Part shown: positions 14 through 16,467 of the stretch, piece by piece
Layout of the letters: the number at the start of each line of letters is the position of its first letter
How positions within the stretch are numbered: position 1 is the first letter of the stretch
Source of the DNA: an uncultured delta proteobacterium
GTDB lineage: Bacteria; Myxococcota_A; Polyangia; Polyangiales; Polyangiaceae
Assembly (NCBI GenBank): GCA_963841435.1
Contig: CAWJCS010000006.1
Coordinates: forward strand, 1,088,001-1,152,000
DNA: 64,000 nucleotides
Direction of reading: 5' to 3'
Program-made: the position numbers and the translations under genes
Notes under the pieces: generated by a model
The model's input: the letters and a program-made list of their open reading frames with translations, nothing else
What the model was told of the DNA's origin: nothing
The model's database searches: none

Positions 14-1567
14 TCACCCCCGCCGCTTGAGCACGGAGCGGACGAGCAGAACGTCGCTCGCCTGAAGCTCGCGGGTCACGGCGAGCATTGCGACGTACGT
101 GAGGCCCACGCCGAGCGCCGCTGCGATCACGAGCGGGCCGCGCAGCGAGGGCAGGAGTCGCCCCAGCGCTGCGGCCACGGCGACGGCCGCTGCGACGCGG
201 ACGAGCGTGAGCGGGCGTACGAGCGCGCGTGCCGTCCGGAACACGAGCACGCTCGCCGTGAGCATCGCGACGACGATGCCGGCGGAGGTCGACAGCGCGG
301 TTCGGACCAGGAGATCGTCGGAGAGCGGGGCTCCGCGCACGCTGGCGAAGCACGCGCCAACCACGAGCGCGAACGCGAAGGCGGTGACGCGAGCGCTCTC
401 GCGTTCGCGGCCGAGCCCGTTCAAGATTGCCGAAAGCAGGCCGAACATCGCGAACGCGCCGAAGCCGAGCGATAGGATCTCGAGTGTCGGCGCACCGTGG
501 TCGGCGGCCTGAGCGCCGAACACGAGGCGCAAGAGCGGTGCCGCGAGCCCCGACGTCACGCTCACCATGCCGCCGGTAATGATGAGCGAGAGCCGGAGCC
601 CGTTCTCGACGTAACGTGCCACCCCGGCGTGGTCGGCATCGCGCCGGGCGCTCGCCAGCATGGGAAAGAGCACGAAGGTGACGGCCACGAGCAGTTGGTA
701 CGGCAAAAAAGAGAACAGCTGCGTCGCTCGATAGGTGCCCACGAGCAGATCCGCAGCGGACTCCGGCAAGCCCTCACGGCGTGCCGCCTCGGCACCGAAG
801 CGCCGGAGCAGCGTGAGGTCCGCCTGAAGCAGCAGATTGAGGAGCGTCTGCCCGACGAACAACCGCCCGACGAACACGAGGTGATGCCGTACGGGGTCGG
901 TGCCCGAGCCGCGGCGACCGATGCCGACCACGAAGAGCGCGCCGACGAGCACGAGCGTCGCGCTCGCGACGAAGCCCCAGGCCGCTCCCTCGACGCCTGC
1001 TACCCTGTTGCCCGGGTGAACGAAAAGGTACGCCCCGCCGACGAGGCCCACCGTGCGCAGCGTCGCGGCGAGCACGTCGAAGCCCGCTTGCGCCACGAAA
1101 CGCCGCGCGCCGTTCAATCCGCCGACGAGCGGCGCGTAGCACCCGTAACAAAGCAGCACGAGTGAGAGGATCCTGAGCGCCGGCACGAGGTGCGGCACGC
1201 CGACCAGGGTGCCGATCGCCGGCGCCGCTGCGAAGAATGCGCCCGCGAGGCAGAGCGCGATCACGGCGTGCAGCGACAGCACGCGGCGCAGCACGATCTG
1301 TTCGCGTCCCCGGGGTGCACCCGCCACGGCGCGGCTCACCCCCTGGATCGACGTGCCGACGATGGGGTTGTACGCGATGCTCGCGATCGACTGCACGCTC
1401 GAGAGCGCGCCGTAGCCGTCGAGCCCGAGCACGCGCGGCAAGGCGAACTGCTGCACGAGCCCGGCGAGGATGAAGTAGGCCTTGGCCGCTGCGACCGCGA
1501 GCCCGCCCCGGCCTGCTTGTCGCGACACGTCGGTCGGCTCGCCGCCTTCGGTGCGCGCTCCAGTCAC
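14..1567 (-). CDS. MOP-superfamily flippase (MurJ/Wzx-like polysaccharide or lipid II flippase)
   Basis: 517 aa, 12-14 hydrophobic segments; 'LPRVLGLDGYGALS' and 'FVLFPMLASA' segments typical of the family. Confidence 0.75.
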   Translation of the reverse strand: MTGARTEGGEPTDVSRQAGRGGLAVAAAKAYFILAGLVQQFALPRVLGLDGYGALSSVQSIASIAYNPIVGTSIQGVSRAVAGAPRGREQIVLRRVLSLHAVIALCLAGAFFAAAPAIGTLVGVPHLVPALRILSLVLLCYGCYAPLVGGLNGARRFVAQAGFDVLAATLRTVGLVGGAYLFVHPGNRVAGVEGAAWGFVASATLVLVGALFVVGIGRRGSGTDPVRHHLVFVGRLFVGQTLLNLLLQADLTLLRRFGAEAARREGLPESAADLLVGTYRATQLFSFLPYQLLVAVTFVLFPMLASARRDADHAGVARYVENGLRLSLIITGGMVSVTSGLAAPLLRLVFGAQAADHGAPTLEILSLGFGAFAMFGLLSAILNGLGRERESARVTAFAFALVVGACFASVRGAPLSDDLLVRTALSTSAGIVVAMLTASVLVFRTARALVRPLTLVRVAAAVAVAAALGRLLPSLRGPLVIAAALGVGLTYVAMLAVTRELQASDVLLVRSVLKRRG

Positions 1568-1718
1568 GGCCGGCCACGCTCTATCGAACCAGGATCGTCC
1601 GTCAATCCGGAAACGAGCGCGCGCGCCGCCGTGAAAATGCCTGGACCGGGCGGAGCGGGCGCCCTAGCGTGGCGTGGCCAGGAACGAGGAGGCGGCTTTG
1701 ATTGAGTCCAGGTTAGAA

Positions 1719-2979: not shown

Positions 2980-4257
2980 ATGGAAAGGTCGGTCCTCGGT
3001 TCGACCACGCCCCCCCCCATGGCTGCCGCGAGCTTCCCCCCGTTCCTCCAGACGAGCCCTCCCACCTTCCCGGGGATGCCGGGCGTCCGGGAGCCGTCGC
3101 TCGCCATTCGGGGCCGCGTCCTCATCGCCGACGACGACGACAACCTCTTGCGAGCCCTCACCCGCACGCTCGAGCGCGCGGGCCACGAGGTGACGCGCAT
3201 CGCCGACGGTCGCGCCGCCTGCGAGCAGATTGCCGGCATGGCCGCCGACGAGGTCGACGTCATCGTGACGGACATCTCCATGCCCGGCGCCGACGGCCTC
3301 GAGGTGATGCGGGCGGCGCACCATCTCGACCCGGATCTTCCCGTGCTCCTCATGACGGGCTTGCCCACCGTGGAGACTGCCGTTCAAGCCCTGGAACGCG
3401 GCGCCTATCGCTACCTTCTCAAGCCCGTGGATCCCGACGTGCTCGTGCAGGCCGTCGCGCAGGCGATCGAATTCAGGCAGGGCGTGCGTACCGCGTTCGC
3501 CGACACCCGGCCCGGCATGTCGCCGCCGAGCTCCCGCGTGCGCGCCGAGCTCTCGGGCCGCTTCGATACGGCTCTCGAGAAGCTCTGGATGGCATTCCAG
3601 CCAATCGTCTGCTGGAGCAGCAGGACCACTCACGCGTTCGAAGCGCTCGCGCGCACCGAGGAGCCGTCGCTCGGGCGTCCCGATCACCTGTTCAACGCCG
3701 CCGAGCAGCTACACCGCGTTCAGGAGCTCGGGCGCGTGATCCGGAGCAAGGTCGCGTCGTCGATCTCGAGCGCGCCGACGGACGCAGCGATCTTCGTGAA
3801 CCTCCACGCGAGCGACCTCGCCGACAACGAGCTCTACTCGAGCTCCTCGCCGCTCGCGCCCCATGCTCACCGCATCGTGTTCGAGATCACCGAGCGGGCC
3901 TCGCTCGACAAGGTCAAGGACATCAAGGACCGTGTGACGCAGCTCCGCTCCCTCGGCTATCGCATCGCCGTGGACGATCTCGGAGCCGGCTACGCAGCGC
4001 TCTCGAGCCTCGCGAGCCTGCAGCCCGAGGTGGTGAAGCTCGACATGTCGCTCGTGCGCGGGGTCGACAAGGAGCCCATCAAGCAACGCCTCGTCGCGTC
4101 GCTGCAAACGCTCGGCGGGCCGCTCGGCATCACGGTGATCGCCGAAGGCGTCGAGACCGAAGCCGAGCGCGATACCTTGATCTCGGTGGGCTGCGACCTC
4201 TTTCAGGGCTTTCTCTTCGCCCGGCCCGGCCCGGGGTTCCCGAGCGTCACGTTCTGA
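2980..4257 (+). CDS. Response regulator with EAL c-di-GMP phosphodiesterase domain (REC-EAL)
   Basis: REC motifs ADDDD, TDISMP, LKP; EAL motifs FEALAR, FEITE, AVDDLGAGY, VKLD, AEGVE, FQGF. Confidence 0.92.
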   Translation: MERSVLGSTTPPPMAAASFPPFLQTSPPTFPGMPGVREPSLAIRGRVLIADDDDNLLRALTRTLERAGHEVTRIADGRAACEQIAGMAADEVDVIVTDISMPGADGLEVMRAAHHLDPDLPVLLMTGLPTVETAVQALERGAYRYLLKPVDPDVLVQAVAQAIEFRQGVRTAFADTRPGMSPPSSRVRAELSGRFDTALEKLWMAFQPIVCWSSRTTHAFEALARTEEPSLGRPDHLFNAAEQLHRVQELGRVIRSKVASSISSAPTDAAIFVNLHASDLADNELYSSSSPLAPHAHRIVFEITERASLDKVKDIKDRVTQLRSLGYRIAVDDLGAGYAALSSLASLQPEVVKLDMSLVRGVDKEPIKQRLVASLQTLGGPLGITVIAEGVETEAERDTLISVGCDLFQGFLFARPGPGFPSVTF

Positions 4258-4383
4258 GGCCGAGCGGTGGCCTCCGTTGCCTCGCGGCGGCGCGCTCTCG
4301 TGCCGCCGCCGTGCGGGCCGGGGAGCCGGAGGCCGATCGGCTCTTGACCTTGAGCCCCTCAAAGGTAGGCTTCGCGCCCGTTT

Positions 4384-4456
4384 TCCAGAGTAGCTCAGTC
4401 GGTAGAGCAGGCGGCTGTTAACCGCCGGGTCCCTGGTTCGAGTCCAGGCTCTGGAG
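4384..4456 (+). tRNA. tRNA-Asn(GTT)
   Basis: Cloverleaf: TCCAGAG/CTCTGGA acceptor, GCTC/GAGC D stem, GGCGG-CTGTTAA-CCGCC anticodon arm, CCTGG-TTCGAGT-CCAGG T arm. Confidence 0.97.
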
Positions 4457-4458
4457 CC
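4410..4458 (+). repeat. attL core, 49-bp direct repeat (3' part of tRNA-Asn)
   Basis: Identical to 15126-15174. Confidence 0.95.
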
Positions 4459-4477
4459 CAGAAAAACAAGCCGATTC

Positions 4478-4495
4478 GCAGCCGAAAGAGGCTGC
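4478..4495 (+). terminator. Hairpin downstream of the tRNA (possible terminator)
   Basis: GCAGCC-GAAAGA-GGCTGC; no clear U-tract. Confidence 0.35.
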
Positions 4496-4550
4496 AACGT
4501 CGATCGGCGAAGGTGGTGATAAATCCCGGCAAGTGGTGGACGACGGGTGT

Positions 4551-4576
4551 GACGTTGCCCCCGCACTGCCCCCGGG
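4551..4576 (+). repeat. Candidate integrase arm-type sites (tandem TGCCCCCG)
   Basis: 25/26 identical to 15045-15070. Confidence 0.65.
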
Positions 4577-4616
4577 GCGCTGGCGTCCGAGCCCGCGGGC
4601 GCGGTACGTTTCTCCG

Positions 4617-4817
4617 GTGGAGCAAGGCACGGCCCGGCGTCTCGCCAAGATCGCGGGGGAGACACTCCGCGAGGGCGGTATCCTGGTGCTTGTGTTCGGG
4701 CTCCTCGACAATCGAATGAGCGACCACCCGCACCCACACCCCTGGGATTTCTGGATCGTAGGTATCGGGTTGTCGTGCATCGTGCTGGGCGGCATACTCG
4801 AAGCGAGGAGCCATTGA
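4617..4817 (+). CDS. Small 2-TM membrane protein (66 aa)
   Basis: GTG 6 nt after a TACGTT -10-like hexamer; two hydrophobic segments; TGATG coupling to next ORF. Confidence 0.55.
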   Translation: MEQGTARRLAKIAGETLREGGILVLVFGLLDNRMSDHPHPHPWDFWIVGIGLSCIVLGGILEARSH

Positions 4818-4969
4818 TGCTAGGCGAGTACCAACCCTTGGTGTTGCTGACCGGCGTATTCACGCTGCTCACCTTCGTTGGCTTCCTGCTCGACTATCGC
4901 GCGCACCATCCGCGTCGTTCGCGCCGCGACTCGGGCGAGCTTTCGCACGGACGCCAGGCCCGTACGTAG
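4817..4969 (+). CDS. Single-TM microprotein (50 aa)
   Basis: GAGGAG RBS, TGATG overlap, hydrophobic segment then basic tail. Confidence 0.55.
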   Translation: MLGEYQPLVLLTGVFTLLTFVGFLLDYRAHHPRRSRRDSGELSHGRQART

Positions 4970-5036
4970 CCACCAAACGCACGAACGCCCCCGAGCCGCG
5001 AGGGGCCCGAGGGCGTCCGAGTGCGCGACGCGAGCC

Positions 5037-5201
5037 CTAGCCGACGAGGCGCATCACGTCGGCCGCTTCCTTCGACGCCAGCGGCTCCGGCACGCGGTAG
5101 ACGATCACGAGCACGTTGCGGGCGTCGTCTCGGGTGACCGCTTCGCCCTCGCGGTCGCGGCGCTCGCGAAGCACGGCCGCGACTTGTTCGATGCGGCTCA
5201 C
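5037..5201 (-). CDS. Hypothetical protein (54 aa)
   Basis: GTG start overlaps the upstream stop (GTGA coupling). Confidence 0.45.
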   Translation of the reverse strand: MSRIEQVAAVLRERRDREGEAVTRDDARNVLVIVYRVPEPLASKEAADVMRLVG

Positions 5202-5683
5202 GACGCACCGCCGACTGCGCGCATGAACGCGGCCACGTAGATCGCCCGCGCCTCGTCGAGCCCCAAGGGCGCGACCGCCTCGGGCCCGCCCTCGTCGGCC
5301 GTCCACGCCGCGAACGCCTCGCCCGCGTACGTGGCCGCGTCCGCGATCTCGCCCTCGTTCACGTAGTTCCGCGCGTCCGTTGCGGCCTCGGCTTCGATTG
5401 CCTCGCGTGCGGCGGCGTGCTCCGCGCGCGCCGCCGCGACCGCAATCGCCTTCGCGACCGCGAACGCCTCGAGCCGCCCGGCGTGCGCGGCCAAGGACAT
5501 GATCGCGAGTGACGCCCGTTGCGCTTGGGCGTGAATCGTCGCGGCGACGTGCTTTAGGAGCTCGGGCGTGGACGGCTCGGCGCTCGCCGCGTCCGTGAGC
5601 TGGGTGGCGATTTGTGCGAGGCATGCGCTCGCCCCGCACGCGCTCGCGAGGGTATCTTGAATCGGATATGGTTCGTGCGTCAT
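5198..5683 (-). CDS. Hypothetical alpha-helical protein
   Basis: ATG with GAAGGA RBS, downstream of structured leader copy 1. Confidence 0.6.
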   Translation of the reverse strand: MTHEPYPIQDTLASACGASACLAQIATQLTDAASAEPSTPELLKHVAATIHAQAQRASLAIMSLAAHAGRLEAFAVAKAIAVAAARAEHAAAREAIEAEAATDARNYVNEGEIADAATYAGEAFAAWTADEGGPEAVAPLGLDEARAIYVAAFMRAVGGAS

Positions 5684-5694
5684 GGCTGGTCCTT

Positions 5695-5788
5695 CCAGTC
5701 GTGGCCAGCCCGGCGGACGGTGACACGTCGCGCCGGGCACCTATTGCTAGGGGGGTGGGATTACCCCGCGTGGTGGTACGGCCGCGGG
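5695..5788 (-). repeat. Structured leader repeat, copy 1
   Basis: Shares CCAGTCGTGGCCAG, TTGCTAGGGG and CCCCGCGTGGTG(G/C)TACGGCCGCGGG blocks with 6774-6865. Confidence 0.75.
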
Positions 5789-5816
5789 CTGCCCCGATCT
5801 TCCCCCGTCCCGCTTT

Positions 5817-6488
5817 TCAGCGCCGTCGCGGGCGCTGCGACGGTGCCGGCGGGTCCGGGCGGTAGCAGTCGCCGAACCACGCGGCCGATAGCGAAATCAG
5901 GCTATTGCAGGCAGCCCCGAGCTGGGCGGCTGGGCCAGCCGTTGCAGCGAAAACCCTCTTTCCCATTTCTCGGGCGACCTTGACCGCGTGCGTGTAGTCG
6001 CCGTCCGCGGAAAGCACGTACGCGGTGTCGTACTCATCCCGCTGGGCCATCGCGACCATGTTGACCGCGAGCATCACGTCCACCGCTTTCTCAACCATCA
6101 CTCGGACGGAATCGTGCCGCCGAGCGATTTCGTACAATTCGCCACGGATCTTCGGATCGATCCTCTCGCGAAGACCGCCCAAGTACTGAAGTAGCTCTTT
6201 CGCTGCGCCGTCCTTGGCGGGGCGCCCCTCGAGCCGGCCAAAGTGCGCCGAGAACCGCGAGTCTTCTGCTTCGATTTGCGTGATGAAACGGCGTTGGTCG
6301 GCGTAGAGCTGCGCGCTGTAGTCTTGCGGCACGCGGCCGATGTAGTAGCGAAGCCCGACCAGCGTGCGCGGCCCCAAGAGCTTCCGCGCAATGCTCGCGT
6401 AGCTGAGTCGGCCTAGGTCAACGCCGCAGGCCCGGAGGGAGTGATACCAGTTGTTTCCGTCAATGAAGACGACCGCCCGGTCTGGCAT
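5817..6488 (-). CDS. NYN domain (LabA/DUF88, PIN-like) ribonuclease
   Basis: Motifs VFIDGNN, EKAVDV, LSADGDY, REMGKRV with all four acidic residues. Confidence 0.9.
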   Translation of the reverse strand: MPDRAVVFIDGNNWYHSLRACGVDLGRLSYASIARKLLGPRTLVGLRYYIGRVPQDYSAQLYADQRRFITQIEAEDSRFSAHFGRLEGRPAKDGAAKELLQYLGGLRERIDPKIRGELYEIARRHDSVRVMVEKAVDVMLAVNMVAMAQRDEYDTAYVLSADGDYTHAVKVAREMGKRVFAATAGPAAQLGAACNSLISLSAAWFGDCYRPDPPAPSQRPRRR

Positions 6489-6502
6489 GACACCCTAAGA
6501 AG

Positions 6503-6539
6503 AAAAAACCCCAGCGTGCGGGAGCACCGGACGCTGGGG
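6503..6539 (-). terminator. Intrinsic terminator immediately upstream of the NYN gene
   Basis: Minus strand CCCCAGCGT-13 nt-ACGCTGGGG-TTTTTT. Confidence 0.8.
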
Positions 6540-6577
6540 GGGTCAACATCCCGCGCCCCGTAGGGTCGGGATGACAG
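6503..6577 (-). ncRNA. Candidate ~75-nt structured RNA or leader upstream of NYN
   Basis: CATCCCG/CGGGATG stem with inner CCC-TACG-GGG, then terminator; promoter directly upstream. Confidence 0.5.
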
Positions 6578-6582
6578 AGGTC

Positions 6583-6610
6583 AAGTTAGTTCGCGCGGGG
6601 CCCCGCGCAA
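6583..6610 (-). promoter_or_regulatory. sigma70-like promoter with overlapping 16-bp palindrome
   Basis: TTGCGC-N16-TAACTT; GCGCGGGGCCCCGCGC at 6593-6608. Confidence 0.55.
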
Positions 6611-6644
6611 CACAAAAAACGCCGACGCCAGCAGAATCAACACC

Positions 6645-6758
6645 CTACGCCACCGCAGCCAAGGCCGCGTCCACGCTCGCGAAGCGCCGCACCCCGCCGA
6701 GCTCGTGCAGCGTGACGCCCGCGCCCGATACCTGGACCACGGCGCCCGGGTTCGCCAT
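6645..6758 (-). CDS. 37-aa ORF paralogous to the C-terminus of 7095-7496
   Basis: MANPGAVVQVSGAGVTLHELGGVRRFASVDAALAAVA, translated by hand; absent from the ORF track. Confidence 0.45.
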   Translation of the reverse strand: MANPGAVVQVSGAGVTLHELGGVRRFASVDAALAAVA

Positions 6759-6773
6759 GCGCCAGGCCCGGAG

Positions 6774-6865
6774 CCAGTCGTGGCCAGGCGCCCGGCTGCT
6801 TGTAACAGCGCGGGCGCCACCTTGCTAGGGGCGGGATTGCCCCCGCGTGGTGCTACGGCCGCGGG
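6774..6865 (-). repeat. Structured leader repeat, copy 2
   Basis: See copy 1. Confidence 0.75.
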
Positions 6866-6879
6866 TGCGGCGGCCTTCC

Positions 6880-7098
6880 TTAGGCGTATGTCGAGCGCGA
6901 AATGTCGACTGCGACGTGCCACGCCCACGGCGTGACCCGAAAAAGCCTAGCGGGATGGCCGCCGAGACTGGCCGCTTCCGCGTTCCGCCCGCGAGCGCGT
7001 AAATCGGCCACCCAAGCGCCGCGCTGGGCGTCCGTGATCGGCTTGCCGTCGAGCGCGGCAAAGCCCTCGGAGTTTACGTAGGCGACGATCGCGATCAT
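6880..7098 (-). CDS. Hypothetical protein (72 aa)
   Basis: ATGA coupling with upstream ORF. Confidence 0.5.
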   Translation of the reverse strand: MIAIVAYVNSEGFAALDGKPITDAQRGAWVADLRARGRNAEAASLGGHPARLFRVTPWAWHVAVDISRSTYA

Positions 7099-7496
7099 GA
7101 TCGAACCGCGGCCACGGCCGATGCTAGGTCGCGGAACTTCTGAACGCGGCCGATTTCGTGGAGCGCGATGCCGCGCCGCGACACGTGCACGACGGCTCCA
7201 GGCGTTCGTTCGCGCCACGAACGGAGGGCATCGAGCGCGTCCACGGACACGGGCATCGCGCCGCGCCGCGCGTTGGCTCGCGATCGCTCGCGCCCGCGCG
7301 AAGCCGTTGGCCGTTCGCCGCGCTGGGCGGCCAAGCGCGCGGGCTTTTGCAGCCGTGCGGCCCAAACTGGTTGGGGTACGCCGAGCTTCTTTGCAAGTAC
7401 GCGAGCCCGGCATCGGAGCGAAGCGCGTTCGCCATGACACGCGCCTGGACTCAGTGCATCGTGGCGCGCCCGTAATTGACTGAGTGTGAGGGCCAT
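7095..7496 (-). CDS. Hypothetical protein
   Basis: Starts 1 nt after upstream stop; C-terminal ~45 aa duplicated at 6645-6780. Confidence 0.5.
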   Translation of the reverse strand: MALTLSQLRARHDALSPGACHGERASLRCRARVLAKKLGVPQPVWAARLQKPARLAAQRGERPTASRGRERSRANARRGAMPVSVDALDALRSWRERTPGAVVHVSRRGIALHEIGRVQKFRDLASAVAAVRS

Positions 7497-7497
7497 T

Positions 7498-7653
7498 TTA
7501 GCGTGCCCCTCGCGATCGATGCAGTCGTTGACGAGCGCGCTCCTCGCGGGCGCGGTCTTTACGCGCTTTTCGTTCGTTGAGCCTCTCGCGCACTTGTTCG
7601 ACGGGTATCTCGCGAACTTGCTCGTAGGGGGTCCTCGGGTCGTCTAGTTGCAT
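7498..7653 (-). CDS. Small basic hypothetical protein
   Basis: Co-oriented ORF behind a hairpin leader. Confidence 0.45.
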   Translation of the reverse strand: MQLDDPRTPYEQVREIPVEQVRERLNERKARKDRAREERARQRLHRSRGAR

Positions 7654-7716
7654 CGTGTCACCCATGGGAGTTAGACGAGGCGGCTGGCCCATGAACGAAG
7701 CCGACCGCCCCGAAGG

Positions 7717-7923
7717 TCATCGCCGCTCGCGGGCGCGAACGCGGGCAAGCTCGGCACGTAGAACGGCCAGCTCCAAAAGGTCGGCCCGGGCGCGCTCAAT
7801 CGCATCCTCGAACGCGTCGAACGGCTCGGCCGCGAGCGTCGCGGCCAAGGTCCCGGCCGTGACCAGCCGCGCCGTGTTTGCGCCGTCGAGATTGGCGCGG
7901 GCCATGGCGCGCGCCGCGGTCAT
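7717..7923 (-). CDS. Hypothetical protein (68 aa)
   Basis: ATGA coupling with upstream ORF. Confidence 0.5.
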   Translation of the reverse strand: MTAARAMARANLDGANTARLVTAGTLAATLAAEPFDAFEDAIERARADLLELAVLRAELARVRARERR

Positions 7924-8654
7924 TCGGCCGCCCCCGCAGCGCCAAAATCTAGGGCACCCAGATCGGCCGCTTGCTTCGCGGCTTCCGTGCGAGCTCGTTC
8001 AATTTGCGAGAACACACGCTTGACGGCCGCGTCATATTCCGTAATTTCTGGCGGAACGGGGTAGCTCGGATGGTCGATGCGGCGAGCGTGAGCCTGCTCA
8101 AAAAACGCGCGACCTTCGACGGGCAGCACTAGCGGCAGCCAAGCAATCACGTCGGCACGCGTGGGCAACGCCACCCGGCCCTCCTCACAGTCGACGACCG
8201 CACCCGCAAGGCTCTCCGCGTAGCGCACGGCAGCGACGCGGGGCGCAATATCCTTGCCCACCCGTCCAAAGGCACCCGCGGCTAGAGATGCCGCAGTGTC
8301 CACCCTGCGGCGGTAAGCACCCTCGAGATACTTGGCGGTCTCCGCTTCGATCACGATTTCACGCGCCGCGTCAGATGCTACCTCAGTCGAGGTGTTCAGT
8401 TGCGTTAGCGCAGCCTGACGGCGGGCAGTTGCCCGAGCAAGCTCCACACCCTCACGCTCGTGCTCTTGCGCCGCCGCGCGGGCATTCTTCAACACGGCAA
8501 CGCGCATCAAGATCTCCCTCTCGAGGGGCGCGACAAGCGACGGCGAAAGCGCTTTCGCCTGCGTGAGGTCATCGCGCAACCGAGCAATCACTTCGGCGGC
8601 ACTTCGATCTTCCCGCGCGAACGCGGCTGATACTTCGGACTTGTCGGTGTTCAT
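7920..8654 (-). CDS. Alpha-helical/coiled-coil hypothetical protein
   Basis: AGGAA RBS before ATG 8654; operonic. Confidence 0.7.
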   Translation of the reverse strand: MNTDKSEVSAAFAREDRSAAEVIARLRDDLTQAKALSPSLVAPLEREILMRVAVLKNARAAAQEHEREGVELARATARRQAALTQLNTSTEVASDAAREIVIEAETAKYLEGAYRRRVDTAASLAAGAFGRVGKDIAPRVAAVRYAESLAGAVVDCEEGRVALPTRADVIAWLPLVLPVEGRAFFEQAHARRIDHPSYPVPPEITEYDAAVKRVFSQIERARTEAAKQAADLGALDFGAAGAAE

Positions 8655-8674
8655 GTTGGGGTTCCTATTCCTGA

Positions 8675-9097
8675 CTAGCGGGCGCGACGCGCCGCGCGTT
8701 GTTTTGCTCTCGCCGTGGCCCATGCTCGAGGGCCTTGTCGTGCCGCCGCAACGAGCGGATCGGGAGCCGGGTCAGCGACTGAGCCCGTGGCCGGAGGCGC
8801 GTTGCCTTGTGCCGTCTCAATCAAATCCTGGACCGCGGCGAGCAAATCTTCGCTGGCGGTGTCGGCGGGGAGTCCGAGCGCTTCAGCTACGGCCGAAAGG
8901 ATCTTTTCCGGCGGCGATCCGTCCGAGAGCGCTGACGCGAGCATGAGCAGATCGGGCCGCGGACCATTCAGTAGGCTCGCGGCAAATCGCAAAGCGTCAG
9001 AGGTAGTAACGCCGCGCGAGGCGGCGAAGGTGTGAAGCGATTTTGCCGCACTCGGCTTGAGCCGGGCGGAGATCACAATGGGAGAGGTGCGGGACAT
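8675..9097 (-). CDS. Ribbon-helix-helix-like protein with scaffold-like C-terminal motif
   Basis: 'IVISARLKPSAAKSLHTFAASRGVTTSDALRFA' fits the CopG pattern; 'ALGLPADTASEDLLAAV'. Confidence 0.55.
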   Translation of the reverse strand: MSRTSPIVISARLKPSAAKSLHTFAASRGVTTSDALRFAASLLNGPRPDLLMLASALSDGSPPEKILSAVAEALGLPADTASEDLLAAVQDLIETAQGNAPPATGSVADPAPDPLVAAARQGPRAWATARAKQRAARRAR

Positions 9098-9119
9098 GGC
9101 TGGTATACAGCCAGTCTAG

Positions 9120-9176
9120 CGCGTGTTGCGTTTGGCGCAACGTGGCCGCGCTGTGTTGCGCTAAACGCAACACGCG
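9120..9176. promoter_or_regulatory. Double palindromic operator / 22-bp inverted repeat over a promoter
   Basis: Two GTTGCG-N5-CGCAAC sites; minus-strand TTGCGC-N16-TAGACT. Confidence 0.65.
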
Positions 9177-9227
9177 GCGCCGTGGGCCGCCACCCGGTGC
9201 CTCGGGCACGCGCGCGCCAAGGAGCGA

Positions 9228-9551
9228 CTAGATCCGGCGCGAACCGATGCCGCCGACGATCGACGCGTAACCATGGCCGTGATTGCGGGTGTGTAGGCCG
9301 CCGCTCGGGGCTGCGCTGCCGTACTGCGCACCCAAGTTTCGATGATAGAAAGACTCAAGCGCGGGCACCGCCACTGCGGACACGGCGCGCGCGGCGCGGG
9401 AGCGGCGCGCTTTCGGCGCGGGCTTCGCCTCAGGTTCCTCGCCGAGTAGTGCACGCACTTCCTCGACCTCGATCCCAAACTCCACCGCGACTTCAGCCGC
9501 GGTCGCGCCCGACGCGATCGCCGCGAGCATGTTCCGTTCGACGGGTGTCAC
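9228..9551 (-). CDS. Small HTH-like protein
   Basis: 'SGATAAEVAVEFGIEVEEVRALL'; GTGA coupling. Confidence 0.5.
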   Translation of the reverse strand: MTPVERNMLAAIASGATAAEVAVEFGIEVEEVRALLGEEPEAKPAPKARRSRAARAVSAVAVPALESFYHRNLGAQYGSAAPSGGLHTRNHGHGYASIVGGIGSRRI

Positions 9552-9832
9552 GGCGCACCCGTGGGCGCGGTCGCGGCGAGCACCTTCATGCTGAACACTT
9601 CCAGGTCGCGGCCACGCGCCAAGGCGACGTCGAAGCGCTGAACGCGCACGAGATCCATCAGCACGGCGACCGCGATCGCGTTGAGACTTGGCCCGGGGAC
9701 GTGCGCGGCGAGGGCCGCGACGCGATCGATCGCACTCTCTAACAGCGCGTTGCGAGCGCGTTCGGAGTCGAGGCGCGAGGCCGCGCTTTCCGTAACGCAC
9801 TGCTCGAGCTCGGCGCGGGTATCTGTTTTCAC
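9548..9832 (-). CDS. Hypothetical protein (94 aa)
   Basis: Coupled to both neighbours. Confidence 0.55.
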   Translation of the reverse strand: MKTDTRAELEQCVTESAASRLDSERARNALLESAIDRVAALAAHVPGPSLNAIAVAVLMDLVRVQRFDVALARGRDLEVFSMKVLAATAPTGAP

Positions 9833-10428
9833 TTTGGGTTCAGCCTCTCGTAACGCTCAGTCAGAAATCGCTCATTCATCGCCGTAGCGCGCTCGTGCTT
9901 TTCGGTGAGCGCTGCCAAGCGCCCGCGCAAGTTCTCGTCGGCGTGAGCTTGCGCGCGAACGCGGTCGAGAAGCTCCGCGTGCGCTTTCGTGCCCCATTCT
10001 AGTTCACGTTTCGCCGCGGCCTCGGGGCGCGGCGTGAGCGAGTCGATCGCTTGTAGCAAGGCGGTGTTCGTCGCGATGAGGCGCGACACGGAAGCGGCCG
10101 CGCGCGCCTCACTGCCAGCGAACGGGAGCAGCTCGTCAATCGCCGCTTGGACGCCGCGCTGGTTTCGGCGCATGCCTTCCAGGCCGCCGTCCTCGATCGC
10201 CGCGGCCGCGGCGTGTTCGAGCTCGGCCACGGGCGCGGAAGGCCGGGCAGCGGCGGCGGGGGGCTTGGGCGTGCGCCGCTTCCCCAAATGACGGCTGAGC
10301 GTGGCCGCCGACACGTGCACGCCTTCCGCCGCCAGGCGCCGCCGGACCTCGGCCAAGCTCCGGCCGCCGCCCACATGCCGCGCGAGCGCCGCGATTACAT
10401 CGTCGGTCAGTACGGTAGGGCGGGCCAC
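9829..10428 (-). CDS. HTH protein, terminase small subunit-like
   Basis: N-terminus (M)ARPTVLTDDVI, HTH 'RSLAEVRRRL...VSAATLSRHL', helical C-terminus; lies next to the origin region. Confidence 0.5.
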   Translation of the reverse strand: MARPTVLTDDVIAALARHVGGGRSLAEVRRRLAAEGVHVSAATLSRHLGKRRTPKPPAAAARPSAPVAELEHAAAAAIEDGGLEGMRRNQRGVQAAIDELLPFAGSEARAAASVSRLIATNTALLQAIDSLTPRPEAAAKRELEWGTKAHAELLDRVRAQAHADENLRGRLAALTEKHERATAMNERFLTERYERLNPK

Positions 10429-10433
10429 CCTAC

Positions 10434-10462
10434 ATGGTATCACGTAGTTTCTGAACGTTCAA
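10434..10462 (-). promoter_or_regulatory. sigma70-like promoter, probably leaderless
   Basis: TTGAAC-N17-TACCAT, 5 nt before GTG; palindrome TGAACGTTCA overlaps -35. Confidence 0.65.
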
Positions 10463-10813
10463 AACGTAGTGAAAGCTCCGCGAGCACGGCCGACGCGATT
10501 TGCGCCGCGATCGTGGCGATCCGCGGGGGTTTCGCACGGAAACGCGCGCAGAATTTGCAAAAACGAACGCAGAGGCGTCAGGTCTTGCAAGTGAGGGTGG
10601 ACTATATACCCCCTCAACGGAACCCAGGGCCGCTATACGCGACTTGGGCGCGAGCGCCAACGTGGGCGACTTGAGGCGCGCTCGCGGGCGAGGCGCAAAC
10701 CTTGCGCGTTGATACATTCAAGAGAGCGGCACGGCACGGCGCGGCGCGGGCGAGCTCGCGTGGTCGGGCGGGCTCGTTGCCGGGCGCGGGTACGCGCGTG
10801 GCGGCCAGGGGCA

Positions 10814-10953
10814 CGGCGGCGGGCGTGGCGCGGGGCGGGGCGGGGCGGGCGGGCGGGCGGGCGTGGCGCGGGCGCGGGCGTGGCGTGGCGCGGGGCGGGC
10901 GGGCGTGGCGCGGGGCGGGCGGGCGTGGCGCGGCGCGGGCTCGGGCGGCGGCC
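10814..10953 (+). repeat. A-free G-rich tract with ~20-nt tandem units; G-quadruplex-capable
   Basis: 140 nt without A; GGGCGTGGCGCGGGGCGGGC units; seven G3-4 runs at 10832-10861. Confidence 0.8.
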
Positions 10954-11041
10954 AGGACCAGGCCCACACGAGCAGCGGCGGGCGGCGGCACCCACAAGCG
11001 CGGCCCGCGGGTGGAATCGATCGTTCTCCACTCCCGCGCGG

Positions 11042-11230
11042 CGGCAAGGCCCGCAGCAAGGCACACCCTTAGGTGTGTGCCTGCTTGCTGCAGAGAGCCT
11101 GGGTCTAGCAGCAAGAAAGCAGAAAGAAAGCCCGCTAAAACAGCAAGACACAGCAAGAAAGCAGCAAGCGATTCCTTGCTGCAAAACACGGCGTTTCTTT
11201 CTGCTTTTGAACCACCGGCCGGACAGCAAG
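11042..11230. repeat. Iteron cluster, putative replication origin
   Basis: CAGCAAG at 11054, 11109, 11141, 11151, 11162, 11224; inverted at 11084, 11175; relatively A-rich. Confidence 0.75.
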
Positions 11231-11239
11231 GAAATCCGC

Positions 11240-13369
11240 TCACGCTACCCGCACCGGCCGCGCGAACCGACCGATCGTCTTGGTGCCGGCGATAGCGTCG
11301 CGCACGTCCGTGTCGGGCGCCGCGGCGCCGGTCTCGGTCAGGGCTATCGCACCCATTGTGCGCACGGCGAATTTGGCGTCCACGAGGCGCGCCACGGCGC
11401 GCTCGGCTGGCCGAGTGCCCTCGCCGCCGGCCGATACGAGATCGCGCGTGGCATGGTTCTGGTTGTCGCGGAGCACGTCCCAAATACGATGGCCGGCCGC
11501 GATCGTCTTGGCCTGCGCCTCTTGGGTGCGGCGCTCGTCTTGCGGTCGCTTGCCCACGGCCTCGCTAGGCTTTGCCGTGCGCGCGACGCGTAGCGCCTTC
11601 CCGGTCGGAGCACCCTCGCATGGCGCATCCGTGAACTGGACGCGGAACGGCGCGAACGCCTTGCGCACCTCTCGCGAGCACGACACGTCGATCACGGTAC
11701 GATCGTCGCTCGTGCGCTCGAGACTGATGGCCGCTTGCACGGCCGCGGGCGCCGAGTTGTGGCCGCTCATCTTGTGGAGCCCGGTCGCGCTCGTACTCTT
11801 GTTTTCGTGTAAGAGCGCGACGATCAGCGCGCCGGTCACGTCGCTCACCTTGCCGAGTTCCTTTAGCCAGTGCGCGAACTTGTTGGAGTTATGCTCGATG
11901 TCGCCGGGCAACGAGGAGCCGTACGTGTCGATCGCAACGAAGCCGATCCGTTGTTCTTCGATGTACGCCGCGAGGTCGTCTAGAAATCCGTTCGTGGCGA
12001 CCGACGAATCGACGTGCATGAAGTGCAGCGGCACCGCGGCACGGTCGAGCCCGAGGCCTGCGCACAGTCGCGCTTCGCGCTCCTCGGTTAGGGTGCCGCC
12101 CTCGAACGCCAGAAACAGCGCGTTGCGTTGCTTCACGTCGAACCCGAGGAACGGCTTGCCGGCCGCAACGCAGATCGACATGAGCAGCGCGAACGGCGTC
12201 TTTGCCACGTTCGCGAACGCCTGAATCGCGCTCACCTTGCCCGGAGCGAGGTCGAGCCCCTCGATCACGTACTCGAGCGGGTCAGGCAGCTTGGAGCGGT
12301 CCGCCATGCGCCCGTGGCGCAGTAAGCCCGCGGGCGTTCCCTGCTCGGGTGGCGCGTGCGCACTCGAGGCGCCGTCGTCATCGTGCGCGGCGCGTTCGCG
12401 TGCCGCGGCGCCGTGCCGCGCGAGCGCGCTCGAGACGCCGCGTAGCGCGTCACGTTCCGTGGCCACGTGCGCGCACGCACGTTCCGCGGCGCGGCGCAGC
12501 TTTTCGCGCCCGCCGGCTTCCGTCACCCAAGGCGGCGCGCATAGTGGATCCCACACGTCGGCGAGCACGCGATCGGTCGCGTCCACGTCGCAATCGAGCT
12601 CCGCGGCGAGGCGTATCGCCGCGCGGTTCATGGCGTCGTCGCCGCCGTGGTGAGAGACACTGACGGGCAGCACGCACGCGAGCGCGTGCGCGCGCGCGAG
12701 GCGCGCGTCATTTGCGGGCGCGTCCGGGTCGCGTGGCGTGCTCGAGCTCGCCTTGCTTGCGTCGCGGTCGAGTGCATCGCACCACCCGGCCGGTAGTGCC
12801 GTGATCTCCTGGACGATAGTCCACGCGTATTCACCCTTCGCGGAGCGTGACGGAGCCACGACGATTTGCCCGCCCTGCGATCGCAAGTCGATGCCCGCGA
12901 TCTTGCGGACGTTGTTCTTGGGGAGCGCTCGCACGGCCGGCCACTCGTAGATCCGGTGCTGCCCGCCGCCGCCCGTACGCGCCGTGAGCGTCGCCGGCAA
13001 GGCGCCTAACTGCGCTTCCGCGCGCGCGAGCGCGCCGGGCTCGTCCTCGTCGAGCGCTACAAGCAAGCGCCCATCCGGCTGCGCGCCCATGCGCAAACCG
13101 ACGTTGCCGCCGCGATCGATCCACGCGTCTACCGCGGCCGCGTCCACGGGCGCGGTTTGCCAGCCCTTGGCGATCGGTATCTTGCCGCCCTTGTGGATGC
13201 AGATCGGCGCGAGGCCTATGTCGGCATACTTCGCGGCGATGGACGACGGCGCCCCGTTGCGCGTCTCGCTCTCCGGCACGGCCGCCCCAGACGCGGGCTT
13301 GATTGCGGGGGCTTGCTTACGGGCGGATTTATGGGATGATTTCATGGTCTGTTTCGTTTCTGTTTTCAC
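11240..13369 (-). CDS. Bifunctional DNA primase/polymerase (Prim-Pol) fused to AAA_25/RepA-like helicase
   Basis: NVGLRMG, LVALDED, RTGGGGQHRIY, IDLRSQGGQIVVAPS; Walker A-like AFANVAKT, FLAFE, Walker B FVAIDT, LLHENK. Confidence 0.9.
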   Translation of the reverse strand: MKTETKQTMKSSHKSARKQAPAIKPASGAAVPESETRNGAPSSIAAKYADIGLAPICIHKGGKIPIAKGWQTAPVDAAAVDAWIDRGGNVGLRMGAQPDGRLLVALDEDEPGALARAEAQLGALPATLTARTGGGGQHRIYEWPAVRALPKNNVRKIAGIDLRSQGGQIVVAPSRSAKGEYAWTIVQEITALPAGWCDALDRDASKASSSTPRDPDAPANDARLARAHALACVLPVSVSHHGGDDAMNRAAIRLAAELDCDVDATDRVLADVWDPLCAPPWVTEAGGREKLRRAAERACAHVATERDALRGVSSALARHGAAARERAAHDDDGASSAHAPPEQGTPAGLLRHGRMADRSKLPDPLEYVIEGLDLAPGKVSAIQAFANVAKTPFALLMSICVAAGKPFLGFDVKQRNALFLAFEGGTLTEEREARLCAGLGLDRAAVPLHFMHVDSSVATNGFLDDLAAYIEEQRIGFVAIDTYGSSLPGDIEHNSNKFAHWLKELGKVSDVTGALIVALLHENKSTSATGLHKMSGHNSAPAAVQAAISLERTSDDRTVIDVSCSREVRKAFAPFRVQFTDAPCEGAPTGKALRVARTAKPSEAVGKRPQDERRTQEAQAKTIAAGHRIWDVLRDNQNHATRDLVSAGGEGTRPAERAVARLVDAKFAVRTMGAIALTETGAAAPDTDVRDAIAGTKTIGRFARPVRVA

Positions 13370-13458
13370 GCGATCGGTCTGAGCGGCGCCGCCTCCACGG
13401 CGCCGTTCGCTATTTGGGGTTCACTTGCGCGTAGGTTTTTCGGGGAACGGACGCGCTC

Positions 13459-13695
13459 TCACGGCGTCACCCGTGCCGCGGCCTTGCGGCGCGCTCGCGC
13501 TCGCGTCGCACGCACGGCGCCGATCGGCGCGGCTTCAATGATCGCGTCGATATCGGCGCGGCGCACGAGCACGCGACGCCCGGGTTTGAACGCCGGGAGC
13601 TTGCCGAGCTTGATCCAATATCGAAGCGTCTCGAGACAGACGGGGTAACGCTGGGTGATCTGGTCTAGGGTTTCATAGCCAACGGGCACGCTCAT
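13459..13695 (-). CDS. Excisionase-like HTH DNA-binding protein
   Basis: 'TLRYWIKLGKLPAFKPGRRVLVRRADID'; divergent from integrase. Confidence 0.85.
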   Translation of the reverse strand: MSVPVGYETLDQITQRYPVCLETLRYWIKLGKLPAFKPGRRVLVRRADIDAIIEAAPIGAVRATRARARRKAAARVTP

Positions 13696-13964
13696 GAGAA
13701 AACTCGCTTCCCGGCAAAGCCGGGTGTCGTTTTCCCGTGGCGCGCATTCGACGTTGACCGCTGCTCCCTTGGCCCGGCGTTTTGAGATTCCGGAGGAGCC
13801 GGCTCCCCCACCAGCCTCGGGGGAGCTCTATCGCACTGCGCGCCCGCCCATTCGGCATCAATGGGACGGGCAGTCTTGTTTGGTTTTTCGCTCGGATCAT
13901 CCCGAGCACACCCCAAGCGTGAACCGAGATCCCACCGGTGGCAAGTCGAGGTACTCTCGCGGCC

Positions 13965-15104
13965 ATGCCCCGCCCTTCCCGCTCTGGCATTCGTGGTCTC
14001 TACCGCGACGCGGACGGCCGGTACCGGATCGATCTTCGTTACACGGACCCCGCGGGCGTCGAGCGTCGCCACAAGGAACGGCTCCCCGAGGGTACGCCCG
14101 CGCTCGCGGCGCGTGCACGGGCGACGGACGTGCTTACGATGGCGCTCGCCGGCAAGCTGCACGAACGCGGCGAGGACGCACCCACGGGGCTTCGGTCCGC
14201 GTTCGACGAGTATCGGCGGCTCACGGCGCCCGCGAACCCGAAGCAACGTGAGCGCCACTGCAAGGTGCTCCTCGCCGCGTTCGGCGACGTGGCCTTGGCC
14301 GAAGTGAACGAGCTCGCGATCGAGCGTTTCAAGCGTGCCCGCGCTACCGGCAAGTCGCCGAGCACGGTCAATCGCGAGCTGCAGACTTTGCGGCATTTCC
14401 TGAATTGCGCCGTGGAATGGCGCTGGCTCGAGGCGCGCCCCAAGGTGCGCATGTTCAAGGAACCGCCCGGCCGCGTTCGCTGGCTTTCGGACGGCGAGCG
14501 AGCGAGGCTCTATGGTGCGTTGCCCGCCCGGTTCAAGCGCGTCGTGCTCGCGGCGGCGCTGTCAGGGCAACGGCTCGCCAACGTGATCGGCATGCGACGG
14601 GCGGACGTGGACACCGCGGCGCGCAGCATTTCGATCCCTAAGACGAAATCGGGGAAGCGTCACGACGTACCCATGTCCGACGCGCTCGCGGTCGTGATCG
14701 CGGAAGCCATCGCGGACGGCGACGCGCAAGCCAAGCGGCGCGAGGTCGATCCCCCGGCGCACGTGTTCGTTTCGCGCTTCGGGAAGCCTTACACGTCGAG
14801 CGGCGTCTCGGGTCTGTTCCGCAAGTGCGTCGCCGATGCCGCCGTGAAGGACTTCCGCTTTCACGACTTGCGGCATGACTTCGCGACCCGCGTCCGTCGT
14901 GCGGGGCATGGGCTCGACGTGGTCCAGGCCCTCTTGGGTCACTCGACGCCGGCCATGACGGCGCGCTACGCGCACATTGGACGGTCGGAACTACACGAGG
15001 CGGTCAGCGCCGTTGCGGCTAGGGCAGGCGGCGAAAAGTCACGCGACGTTGCCCCCGGACTGCCCCCGGGTAGAGTGCAACGACGCGCGAAGCGGCGTAA
15101 ATAA
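13965..15104 (+). CDS. int: Tyrosine recombinase / phage integrase
   Basis: SGQR, KTK, FHDLRH, LLGHS, TARYAH catalytic residues; ends 21 bp before attR. Confidence 0.95.
   Translation: MPRPSRSGIRGLYRDADGRYRIDLRYTDPAGVERRHKERLPEGTPALAARARATDVLTMALAGKLHERGEDAPTGLRSAFDEYRRLTAPANPKQRERHCKVLLAAFGDVALAEVNELAIERFKRARATGKSPSTVNRELQTLRHFLNCAVEWRWLEARPKVRMFKEPPGRVRWLSDGERARLYGALPARFKRVVLAAALSGQRLANVIGMRRADVDTAARSISIPKTKSGKRHDVPMSDALAVVIAEAIADGDAQAKRREVDPPAHVFVSRFGKPYTSSGVSGLFRKCVADAAVKDFRFHDLRHDFATRVRRAGHGLDVVQALLGHSTPAMTARYAHIGRSELHEAVSAVAARAGGEKSRDVAPGLPPGRVQRRAKRRK
15045..15070 (+). repeat. Candidate integrase arm-type sites, second copy (inside int 3' end)
   Basis: Matches 4551-4576. Confidence 0.65.
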
Positions 15105-15125
15105 AGCCGTCTCGTGCGATGACTT

Positions 15126-15174
15126 GGCGGCTGTTAACCGCCGGGTCCCTGGTTCGAGTCCAGGCTCTGGAGCC
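15126..15174 (+). repeat. attR core (duplicated tRNA-Asn 3' part)
   Basis: 49-bp identity with 4410-4458; ends GCC followed by A. Confidence 0.95.
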
Positions 15175-15183
15175 ATTTACGGC

Positions 15184-15203
15184 GGTCCACCAAAAGGTGG
15201 GCC
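15184..15203 (+). terminator. Hairpin after attR (probably the earlier tRNA terminator)
   Basis: GGTCCACC-AAAA-GGTGGGCC. Confidence 0.4.
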
Positions 15204-16462: not shown

Positions 16463-16467
16463 GGCAA
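15265..16467 (-). CDS. Integrase core domain (DDE) transposase; true start is internal
   Basis: WGAERIRGEL, WACDF, IRDRDSKF, ERFLGSVRRECLD, YFNASRPHQGL. Confidence 0.9.
   Translation of the reverse strand: MPVYETLNTNLTAAELASFVAELPVLFFVHAPRENRAVLSALTAALRTATGHLRDAVLDALRPTSAAAGLARDAFRTRAQLLAENALLRQQLIVARRTARRPQLTTTDRALMVLVSSLCRTWRDATLIVSPTTVLRWHREGFRLLWKWKSKRRRAAPPRVAGSTIELIQRMARANRLWGAERIRGELLKLGIHVSKRTIQRHLRAPRPPGDGQSWRTFLQNHTVWACDFLQLHDVWFLPIFAFFIVDVNTKRVVHVGVTRSPTRTWVAQQLRNATPFGQGPEFIIRDRDSKFGADFDRAARGAGTRVLKCPVRSPLVNATCERFLGSVRRECLDHIIILGTRHLEATLGEYVAYFNASRPHQGLKQRVPVGSATVEERATGTVSAIPVLGGLHHHYRRAA

Follow-up and report, generated by a model that had tools for sequence, protein, structure and literature searches.

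A conserved two-hairpin RNA precedes NYN ribonuclease genes in many bacterial phyla and may act as their antitoxin

We analysed a stretch of 64,000 nucleotides, hereafter the window, from the genome of an uncultured delta proteobacterium of the family Polyangiaceae (assembly GCA_963841435.1, contig CAWJCS010000006.1, positions 1,088,001 to 1,152,000), in which a small RNA gene lies in front of a gene encoding a ribonuclease (RNase) of the NYN family. As judged by sequence comparison, the RNA motif is new, widespread and coupled one-to-one to the NYN RNase, and the RNA-NYN pair is most likely a new variant of the RNA-controlled toxin or defence modules. For its function we lean, at somewhat less than even chances, towards an abundant terminated RNA that would control an NYN RNase expressed by read-through, in the manner of a type III or AbiF-like antitoxin.

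The RNA gene and its coupling to NYN genes

To relate the RNA to its neighbour, loci were picked by similarity to the NYN protein alone, with one genome per species, and the best 80 of 131 relatives were kept. These loci span at least ten phyla, and their hosts are mostly uncultured. They are metagenome-assembled genomes (MAGs) of Acidobacteriota (Vicinamibacteria, Thermoanaerobaculia, Terriglobia and Bryobacterales), Gemmatimonadota, Myxococcota and Pseudomonadota, with further hosts among the Planctomycetota, Verrucomicrobiota, Binataceae, Eisenbacteria, Fermentibacteria and Chloroflexota. A covariance model of the RNA (R1) was built from 40 aligned upstream sequences (alignment A2) and a two-hairpin structure, out of the 110-nt stretches that precede the start codons. 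The RNA was found directly upstream of NYN, on the same strand, in 79 of the 80 protein-selected loci. Full-length matches to R1 at E <= 3e-4 lie upstream of NYN in 78 loci and in the window, and a weaker match was obtained in one further locus (L072; 24.7 bits, E 0.003). The contig of the 80th locus (L070) begins inside the open reading frame (ORF), so that it holds no upstream DNA.

The consensus RNA is made up of a first hairpin, P1, whose stem varies and whose conserved loop end reads C(YAMG)G, a linker UUNAY followed by CC, a second hairpin, P2 (CCCCGG-N-GU-C-UGG, a loop, and CCA-C-AC-G-CCGGGG), and a run of five to nine U residues. In alignment A2, positions T40 and A42 are conserved to at least 90%, C45-C49 are invariant, and the T-run is conserved to at least 90%. 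From phylum to phylum, the sequences of P2, with its C.C mismatch, and of the linker hardly change, in loci whose proteins are 40-63% identical. Since this invariance goes beyond what a terminator needs, it suggests that P2 and the linker are recognised by a macromolecular partner. The loop of the terminator hairpin differs among relatives (GAAA, UUCG and others).

The alignment of upstream sequences and the covariation analysis that a preliminary description of this DNA had proposed revealed a conserved structure. The test covered 80 distinct sequences, 22 modelled pairs and 500 shuffles. In the alignment, which had been fitted to the model and thereby favours structure, 93.8% of the cells were paired, compared with 76.9% in shuffles and 29-50% when the partners were slid, and the covariation score was 0.435, compared with 0.146 and 0.03-0.09, respectively. 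Changes on both sides affected 17 of the 22 pairs (12.0 in shuffles) and 272 cells (78.5 in shuffles), and none of the 500 shuffles reached the observed value. All ten modelled pairs of P1 covary by compensatory changes; in P2, seven of 12 pairs covary and four are invariant, with 97.6% of the cells paired. A MAFFT/RNAalifold run that was not fitted to the model also recovered P2 and the tip of P1, with seven compensatory pairs. G-U pairs occur often (a single P1 pair is UG in 37 sequences), and the structure is therefore that of an RNA on the NYN sense strand and not that of a DNA palindrome.

A promoter is conserved together with the RNA. When 79 distinct upstream stretches were compared with TTGACA-N16-18-TATAAT, the mean best sigma-70 promoter score was 9.0 of 12, versus 6.6 of 12 in shuffles, and a score of at least 9 of 12 was reached by 54 of the 79 stretches (68%), versus 3.8% of shuffles. 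The -10 hexamer ends 4-8 nt before P1 in 64 of the 79 relatives, which places the start of transcription at the foot of P1 and makes the RNA consist of P1, the linker and P2. From the U-tract to the start codon there are 5-60 nt in the relatives, too little space for another promoter; NYN would thus be transcribed by read-through only.

The features of the window locus are listed in Table 1. From the DNA letters, the preliminary description had proposed a TTGCGC-N16-TAACTT promoter, a CATCCCG/CGGGATG hairpin with an inner CCC-TACG-GGG, and a 9-bp GC-rich terminator with U6, followed 14 nt later by the ATG of an intact NYN gene. The hairpin, the terminator and the start codon lie where it had placed them, the -10 hexamer occupies 6588-6583, and the promoter is conserved in the relatives. 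The 75-nt RNA folds as drawn, at -39.7 kcal/mol (z = -3.86), a value equalled by one of 200 shuffles. P2 at this locus has 9 bp, the C.C mismatch, 3 bp and a 5-nt loop; a GC-rich stem-loop with an immediate U-tract, kept in the relatives, makes it a predicted intrinsic terminator. An alternative fold had also been considered possible, in which the terminator loop (TCCCGC) pairs with GCGGGA in hairpin 1; this complementarity is present in the window, but it is not conserved, as the loop varies in the relatives.

Upstream, the intergenic stretch is bounded by the stop codon of a small ORF (6647-6645, minus strand), and a weak hairpin with T6 (6633-6614, minus strand) lies 5' of the RNA promoter. 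Tandem Repeats Finder detected no tandem array in 6489-6645, and the window holds one copy of the covariance model. The fold of the entire 160-nt intergenic stretch is unremarkable (z = -1.42 against shuffles), and a consensus promoter scan returned no sites in 4400-15300, the RNA promoter included; the single sequence was therefore insufficient for the claim, which draws its strength from the relatives.

Table 1 Features of the RNA-NYN locus and of the integrated element that carries it (window coordinates)
Feature	Position	Strand	Remarks
-35-like hexamer TTGCGC	6605-6610	minus	3/6 match to TTGACA; near-consensus TTGACA at the same place in relatives
-10 hexamer TAACTT	6583-6588	minus	16 nt after the -35; ends 9-10 nt before P1
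Perfect 16-bp palindrome GCGCGGGGCCCCGCGC	6593-6608	no strand	nearly fills the promoter spacer; folds as a hairpin
P1 hairpin	6547-6573	minus	7-bp outer stem CAUCCCG/CGGGAUG, internal loop, inner CCC/GGG closing a UACG loop
Linker UUGAC	6542-6546	minus	single-stranded; family consensus UUNAY; C-run next
P2 intrinsic terminator hairpin (predicted)	6509-6539	minus	CCCCAGCGU-C-CGG, loop, CCG-C-ACGCUGGGG
U6 tract of terminator	6503-6508	minus	followed by a 14-nt spacer and the ATG at 6488-6486
Full covariance model R1 match	6501-6583	minus	RNA gene and -10 flank; 70.4 bits, E 1.5e-15
NYN (LabA-like, PF01936) nuclease ORF	5817-6488	minus	intact, 223 aa; ATG 14 nt past the U-tract
attL	4410-4458	plus	3' part of tRNA-Asn (gene 4383-4460); copy of the 49-nt perfect direct repeat
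attR	15126-15174	plus	other copy of the 49-nt repeat; boundary of the integrated 10.7-kb element
Tyrosine integrase	13938-15104	plus	inside the 10.7-kb element
Excisionase-like HTH_17 gene	13459-13695	minus	inside the 10.7-kb element
Prim-Pol and AAA_25 primase-helicase	11240-13369	minus	inside the 10.7-kb element

The downstream gene encodes a recognisable nuclease. NYN (PF01936) is the sole Pfam match of the ORF (E 1.3e-15; 58.6 bits against a cut-off of 24.2) and was also found in the whole-genome scan. The catalytic acidic residues D10, D137, D162 and D164 are present, and in an alignment of 33 sequences (A1) the last three are invariant and D10 is conserved to at least 90%. An AlphaFold2 (AF2) model of the protein, with a pLDDT of 88.8, has as its best Foldseek matches the structure 2qip (E 3.4e-6) and the NYN domain of MARF1 (6fdl/5yaa; E 1e-4), and 2qip was also the only match of a sequence search against the PDB (E 0.026). 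Compared with solved NYN domains of 150-165 residues, the model contains an extra segment of about 55 residues (79-134), formed by a beta-hairpin and two helices. A separate search with the protein yielded 538 relatives at E <= 1e-3, the best 120 of which are 53-63% identical and about 211 aa long. The PADLOC profile HEC-09 matches the C-terminal NYN part of the window protein at E 2.7e-17, with a best stretch that covers residues 127-182 only (profile positions 97-154 of 203).

The linkage was also examined from the side of the RNA. A scan for the exact P2 pattern found at least 121 metagenome loci and one locus on a viral contig, 122 matches being listed, four of them without downstream DNA. 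Among the matches listed, 99 of 118 have same-strand similarity to NYN within 200 nt downstream and 19 do not. Among the 67 listed RNA copies that are followed by at least 720 nt, 44 precede an intact NYN gene, 12 a broken or partial one (frameshifted, truncated or replaced after 39-115 residues) and 11 none. The orphan copies that were rescanned keep covariance model scores of 50-78 bits, and a TTGACA-like box is present in most of their displayed upstream stretches. What follows an orphan copy is variable: a HicB/UPF0150-like ORF in one lineage (below the Pfam cut-off), RHH, MazE with PIN, ParE, SLT, HIT, or nothing recognisable. An RNA gene and an NYN gene, both intact, converge at one locus (L110, 1158-1887). 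The RNA terminator is about 23 nt beyond the stop codon of NYN, whose own leader is degenerate; being convergent, this RNA cannot be the NYN leader.

Two orphan copies were found on contigs classed as viral. A 38.6-kb IMG/VR contig (L212) carries a 72.8-bit RNA (1440-1580, minus strand), after which NYN is reduced to its first 13 residues; this copy may represent a decoy RNA borne by a phage, or else a cassette in decay. Phage-borne mimics of the antitoxin are known for the type III system ToxIN. The other copy lies on a 437-kb 'viral' contig, and no NYN relative was found in IMG/VR with the peptide patterns used. In these samples, intact NYN never occurs without the RNA, and the RNA often occurs without intact NYN, as would be expected if the two were toxin and antidote.

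Two further arrangements were seen among the protein-selected loci. In L057, two tandem RNA copies (3741-3959) precede one NYN gene, the only tandem case. An extra, orphan RNA copy lies 3 kb upstream in L031 (869-951), surrounded by AbiEi-like and DUF1016/YhcG nuclease genes.

No known RNA family accounts for the motif. The Rfam search that had been proposed gave no gathering-score match in Rfam 15 over the entire window and no match at E <= 1 in four relatives; at E <= 10 over 5600-7000, the best hit was anti-hemB, with 18.3 bits against a cut-off of 49.5. Our literature search yielded no publication that connects an NYN protein with an RNA antitoxin or describes this RNA motif, and the main text of the 224-motif paper of Weinberg (2017), the part to which the comparison extends, contains no mention of NYN, DUF88 or LabA. 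The order promoter, RNA, terminator, NYN, read at first from one locus, held up in a comparison across about 80 genomes.

Proposed mechanism and alternative explanations

In the mechanism that we propose, the module would consist of a small RNA gene and an NYN RNase gene that share one promoter. Transcription from the sigma-70 promoter would start at the foot of P1, and most transcripts would end at P2 and its U-tract, yielding an abundant RNA of about 65-75 nt, while a minority would read through and give rise to the NYN mRNA. The RNA would control the nuclease doubly, and experimental precedents for such control are AbiF/RCd22 and ToxIN: in cis, it would throttle transcription of the nuclease gene; in trans, NYN would bind the conserved P2 hairpin and linker and stay inactive. 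Loss of the labile RNA, for example upon shutoff of host transcription by a phage or upon loss of the element, would free the RNase and arrest the cell, and such an arrest would serve abortive infection or the addiction of the cell to a mobile element. The abundance of the RNA, the toxicity of NYN, the binding between RNA and protein and the trigger are what we infer here, and a dual role in which the RNA both throttles and binds NYN is favoured because the architecture equals that of AbiF/RCd22.

An RNA that restrains an NYN toxin fits the one-to-one linkage, the RNA that outlives NYN, the defence and DISARM contexts described below and the precedent of AbiF/RCd22. A broader proposal, to which we give slightly less credence than to the antitoxin function as such, is that of a widespread RNA-protein toxin-antitoxin (TA) or abortive-infection family, in which NYN would be held by a single-copy RNA recognised through its own terminator hairpin. 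Its cassette of about 0.8 kb would move between phyla and be recruited into islands of DISARM or restriction-modification (RM) genes and into integrative elements, with the orphan RNA copies of phages and elements, such as that of L212, acting as decoys.

Several observations weigh against an antitoxin function. The RNA is single-copy, with no repeat array, and the NYN fold is not ToxN-like. In many sequences the G-run of P1 can pair with the C-run of P2, which might provide a switch mechanism. The asymmetry between RNA and protein depends in part on how the sets were obtained, an exact conserved pattern having defined the RNA copies and the best 80 matches the protein loci, and some of the broken NYN genes may be frameshifts of metagenome assembly. 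Many of the 98 immediate neighbours of the cassette are ordinary metabolic genes. LabA-like NYN proteins are described as having non-toxin roles too (PMC5499597), and the NYN candidate HEC-09 is reported to have given no protection against any phage tested in Escherichia coli (bioRxiv 10.1101/2024.01.29.577857).

The strongest competitor, a serious one although less probable in our view, is a purely cis-acting 5' leader or attenuator that sets the level of NYN mRNA, the terminated RNA being a by-product without function in trans. NYN might then bind or cleave its own leader, an autoregulation for which the rne, rnc and pnp leaders of other RNases provide precedents, or another protein or a ligand might recognise the nucleotides embedded in the terminator. 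Such a leader would be expected where the RNA lies, always between the promoter and the NYN start with 5-60 nt from U-tract to start codon (the convergent copy of L110 aside), and aptamers embedded in terminators are a known case of conserved nucleotides in such a stem (PMC6478431). Moreover, when the 3' arm of P2 is withheld in folding, on average 8.6 of the 14 nt of its 5' arm become paired, about 7 kcal/mol better than P1 alone, often with the GGGG of P1 as partner. These alternative pairings vary by sequence, however, and no covarying antiterminator was found, although they could not covary, since both partners are invariant. RNA, promoter and fold also persist where NYN is broken, absent or convergent, places at which a by-product should decay. 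In addition, the variable stem and conserved loop of P1 and the conserved mismatch of P2 would resemble hairpins recognised by proteins rather than a ligand pocket.

It is less probable still that the RNA is a cofactor or substrate, either as part of a working NYN ribonucleoprotein or as a precursor that NYN processes into an active small RNA. The one-to-one linkage and the conservation of both partners at the sequence level would agree with this, and the extra segment of about 55 residues in the NYN model (79-134) could hold an RNA. Yet the RNA has no conserved single-stranded variable segment of the guide type, the variable part of P1 being base-paired; orphan RNAs without NYN would be useless; and the interaction of P1 and the linker with the NYN 5' region is about as strong for cognate as for non-cognate pairs (-22.7 and -21.9 kcal/mol, p = 0.13). 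An antisense mechanism of the type I kind was rejected, the complementarity of P1 and the linker to their own NYN 5' region being no greater than to that of other loci. Finally, we regard as excluded that there is nothing special about the region, namely that it holds the terminator of an upstream unit and chance hairpins in GC-rich intergenic DNA. The 160-nt region does fold like its shuffles (z = -1.42), this stretch is rich in terminator-like sites (18, versus 8.6 expected), and the weak T6 hairpin at 6633-6614 could end an upstream unit. Against this, the element covaries and is kept upstream of NYN whatever the upstream gene or its strand, has its own promoter in the relatives and is matched by the covariance model in the window at E 1.5e-15.

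Whichever function applies, an RNA motif with very strong covariation that is absent from Rfam is now defined, and the cis-leader explanation too would mean a new and widespread class of regulatory RNA. If the antitoxin function is true, the few known RNA-antitoxin systems would gain NYN as a new toxin fold and, as a new RNA architecture, a recognition hairpin embedded in a terminator, and the large uncharacterised LabA-like NYN clade, with its 538 proteins, would receive a first testable function. The data suggest that phyla in which immunity has hardly been studied (Acidobacteriota, Gemmatimonadota, Myxococcota, Eisenbacteria and Binatota) have a defence or addiction module, and the module, at about 0.8 kb, is small and easily tested in a heterologous host.

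Genomic neighbourhood and carrier element

Conserved protein partners of NYN were sought among the 410 ORFs that lie within three genes of it, and none was found: the largest cluster across loci in blastp comprised five loci, all of them from related Vicinamibacterales. The absence of a protein antitoxin next to the window gene, remarked on at the outset, therefore extends to the family. The Pfam families of the 98 immediate neighbours are heterogeneous, and 15 of these neighbours match PADLOC at E <= 1e-10, three of them through generic proteins (a subtilase, a caspase and a DndA/SspA-like aminotransferase). In one Vicinamibacterales MAG (L023, 251-8629), the cassette is flanked by two genes of a DISARM system, DrmD upstream and DrmMI downstream, and embedded genes of this kind have been used elsewhere to predict new defence genes. 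DrmD also lies upstream of the cassette in L042, where the upstream neighbour was scanned, and DrmMI fragments lie downstream of it in L034 and L040. Elsewhere the cassette adjoins a type III RM methylase (L003), AbiEi (L024 and L046), PD-Lambda-2_B (L031), a GajB-like helicase (L049) or a PrimPol/TOTE protein (L077). A Prim-Pol primase stands beside NYN in L025, as in the window, and a tRNA lies just upstream in L037.

The location in a mobile element that the preliminary description had supposed was borne out, as the window cassette is part of a 10.7-kb element integrated at tRNA-Asn and bounded by 49-nt repeats (Table 1). Apart from NYN and the genes given in the table, the ORFs of this element have no family match. 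The 7.78-Mb genome contains one NYN gene and one full-length RNA copy, and among 36 other genomes of the same genus NYN was not found with this query, save for one weak broken match (G023). Given this absence from the genus and the single copy in the genome, the RNA-NYN cassette is imported cargo. It is plausible that the element is a satellite, a grading that we keep at this level because no capsid-redirecting genes were recognised in it. Just outside attR are genes for an AbiEii-like nucleotidyltransferase (16145-17101, minus strand), an AbiEi/MarR-like regulator (17384-18433) and an AbiEii fragment (18592-18960); the element has inserted beside a TA or defence spot.

Several other sequence features of the element were recorded. 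The palindrome GCGCGGGGCCCCGCGC in the promoter spacer is not visible in the 50-nt upstream stretches of the relatives and is specific to the window locus; it may be an operator for a regulator encoded by the element, or a hairpin. Upstream of the primase gene, imperfect G-rich repeats of 17-25 nt (GGCGGGCGTGGCGCGG-like) form a dense array at 10813-10951, and a 22-nt inverted repeat at 9120-9176, which is 95% complementary across a 13-nt gap, may serve as an operator or resemble an origin. Downstream of NYN, a 161-aa ORF (5198-5683) has no Pfam, PADLOC or PHROG match, and a paralogue of it lies elsewhere in the genome, behind a hicBA-like pair as read from the translations. A second GC-rich element of about 100 nt, without a match in Rfam, occurs just before ORF starts at 5695-5790 and 6775-6880 (minus strand), where its copies precede the 161-aa ORF (5683-5198) and a 37-aa ORF (6758-6645), respectively; a third copy (G000:C6:882439; L210:1490-1600) precedes the paralogue of the 161-aa ORF. 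Over 38 nt the two copies in the window agree to 82%, and their long inner stem is kept by compensatory changes (GGCGCCCG/CGGGCGCC versus GCCCGGCG/CGCCGGGC).

Comparison with known systems

On the protein side, the closest known group is that of the LabA-like NYN proteins (NYN.COG1432; PMC5499597, structure 2qip), with which the window protein shares the Pfam family, the fold and the catalytic acidic residues. It differs from them in belonging to a tight clade of proteins of about 211 aa with the insert of about 55 residues and, in the loci examined, with the RNA always in front. The OST-HTH fusion and the tRNA- and rRNA-processing neighbours described there for other members are absent from this subfamily. 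HEC-09 is an NYN/MARF1-like RNase candidate embedded in Hma defence systems (bioRxiv 10.1101/2024.01.29.577857), and in this respect it resembles the cassette between the DISARM genes of L023. An additional N-terminal domain resembling a helix-turn-helix is described for HEC-09, whereas the match found here covers the NYN core only; the accessible text of that paper reports no RNA partner.

With the type III TA systems ToxIN, CptIN and TenpIN, the module shares the order promoter, RNA, terminator and endoribonuclease, the lack of a protein antitoxin and the occurrence in mobile or defence contexts (PMC3401426, PMC5086642, PMC13682666). The antitoxins described for those systems are tandem short repeats cut by the toxin, in contrast to the single two-hairpin RNA found here, and the toxin folds differ, as the best matches among solved structures are NYN domains and not proteins of the ToxN/AbiQ type. 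Membership in ToxIN, CptIN or TenpIN was rejected on account of the different toxin fold and the lack of a repeat array. Of the type III-like character first attributed to the locus, the gene order and the missing protein antitoxin have thus stood, but a toxin of the ToxN fold and a tandem-repeat antitoxin have not been found.

The closest parallel in architecture is AbiF/RCd22 of Clostridioides difficile. The differences from it lie in the components. The protein here is an NYN nuclease of the PIN-like metallonuclease fold, whereas AbiF is Abi_2/HEPN-like; the RNA has no RF03085 match; no part of the RNA is more conserved than its terminator hairpin; and the hosts are mostly uncultured Acidobacteriota, Gemmatimonadota, Myxococcota and others. 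Having neither an Abi_2 protein nor an RF03085 motif, the module was rejected as a member of the AbiF system. [quoted passage not shown] The same source describes a promoter of the housekeeping sigma factor, a structured hairpin RNA that is not a repeat, a Rho-independent terminator and a toxin gene reached by read-through, and each of these has its counterpart, as read from sequence, in the RNA-NYN module.

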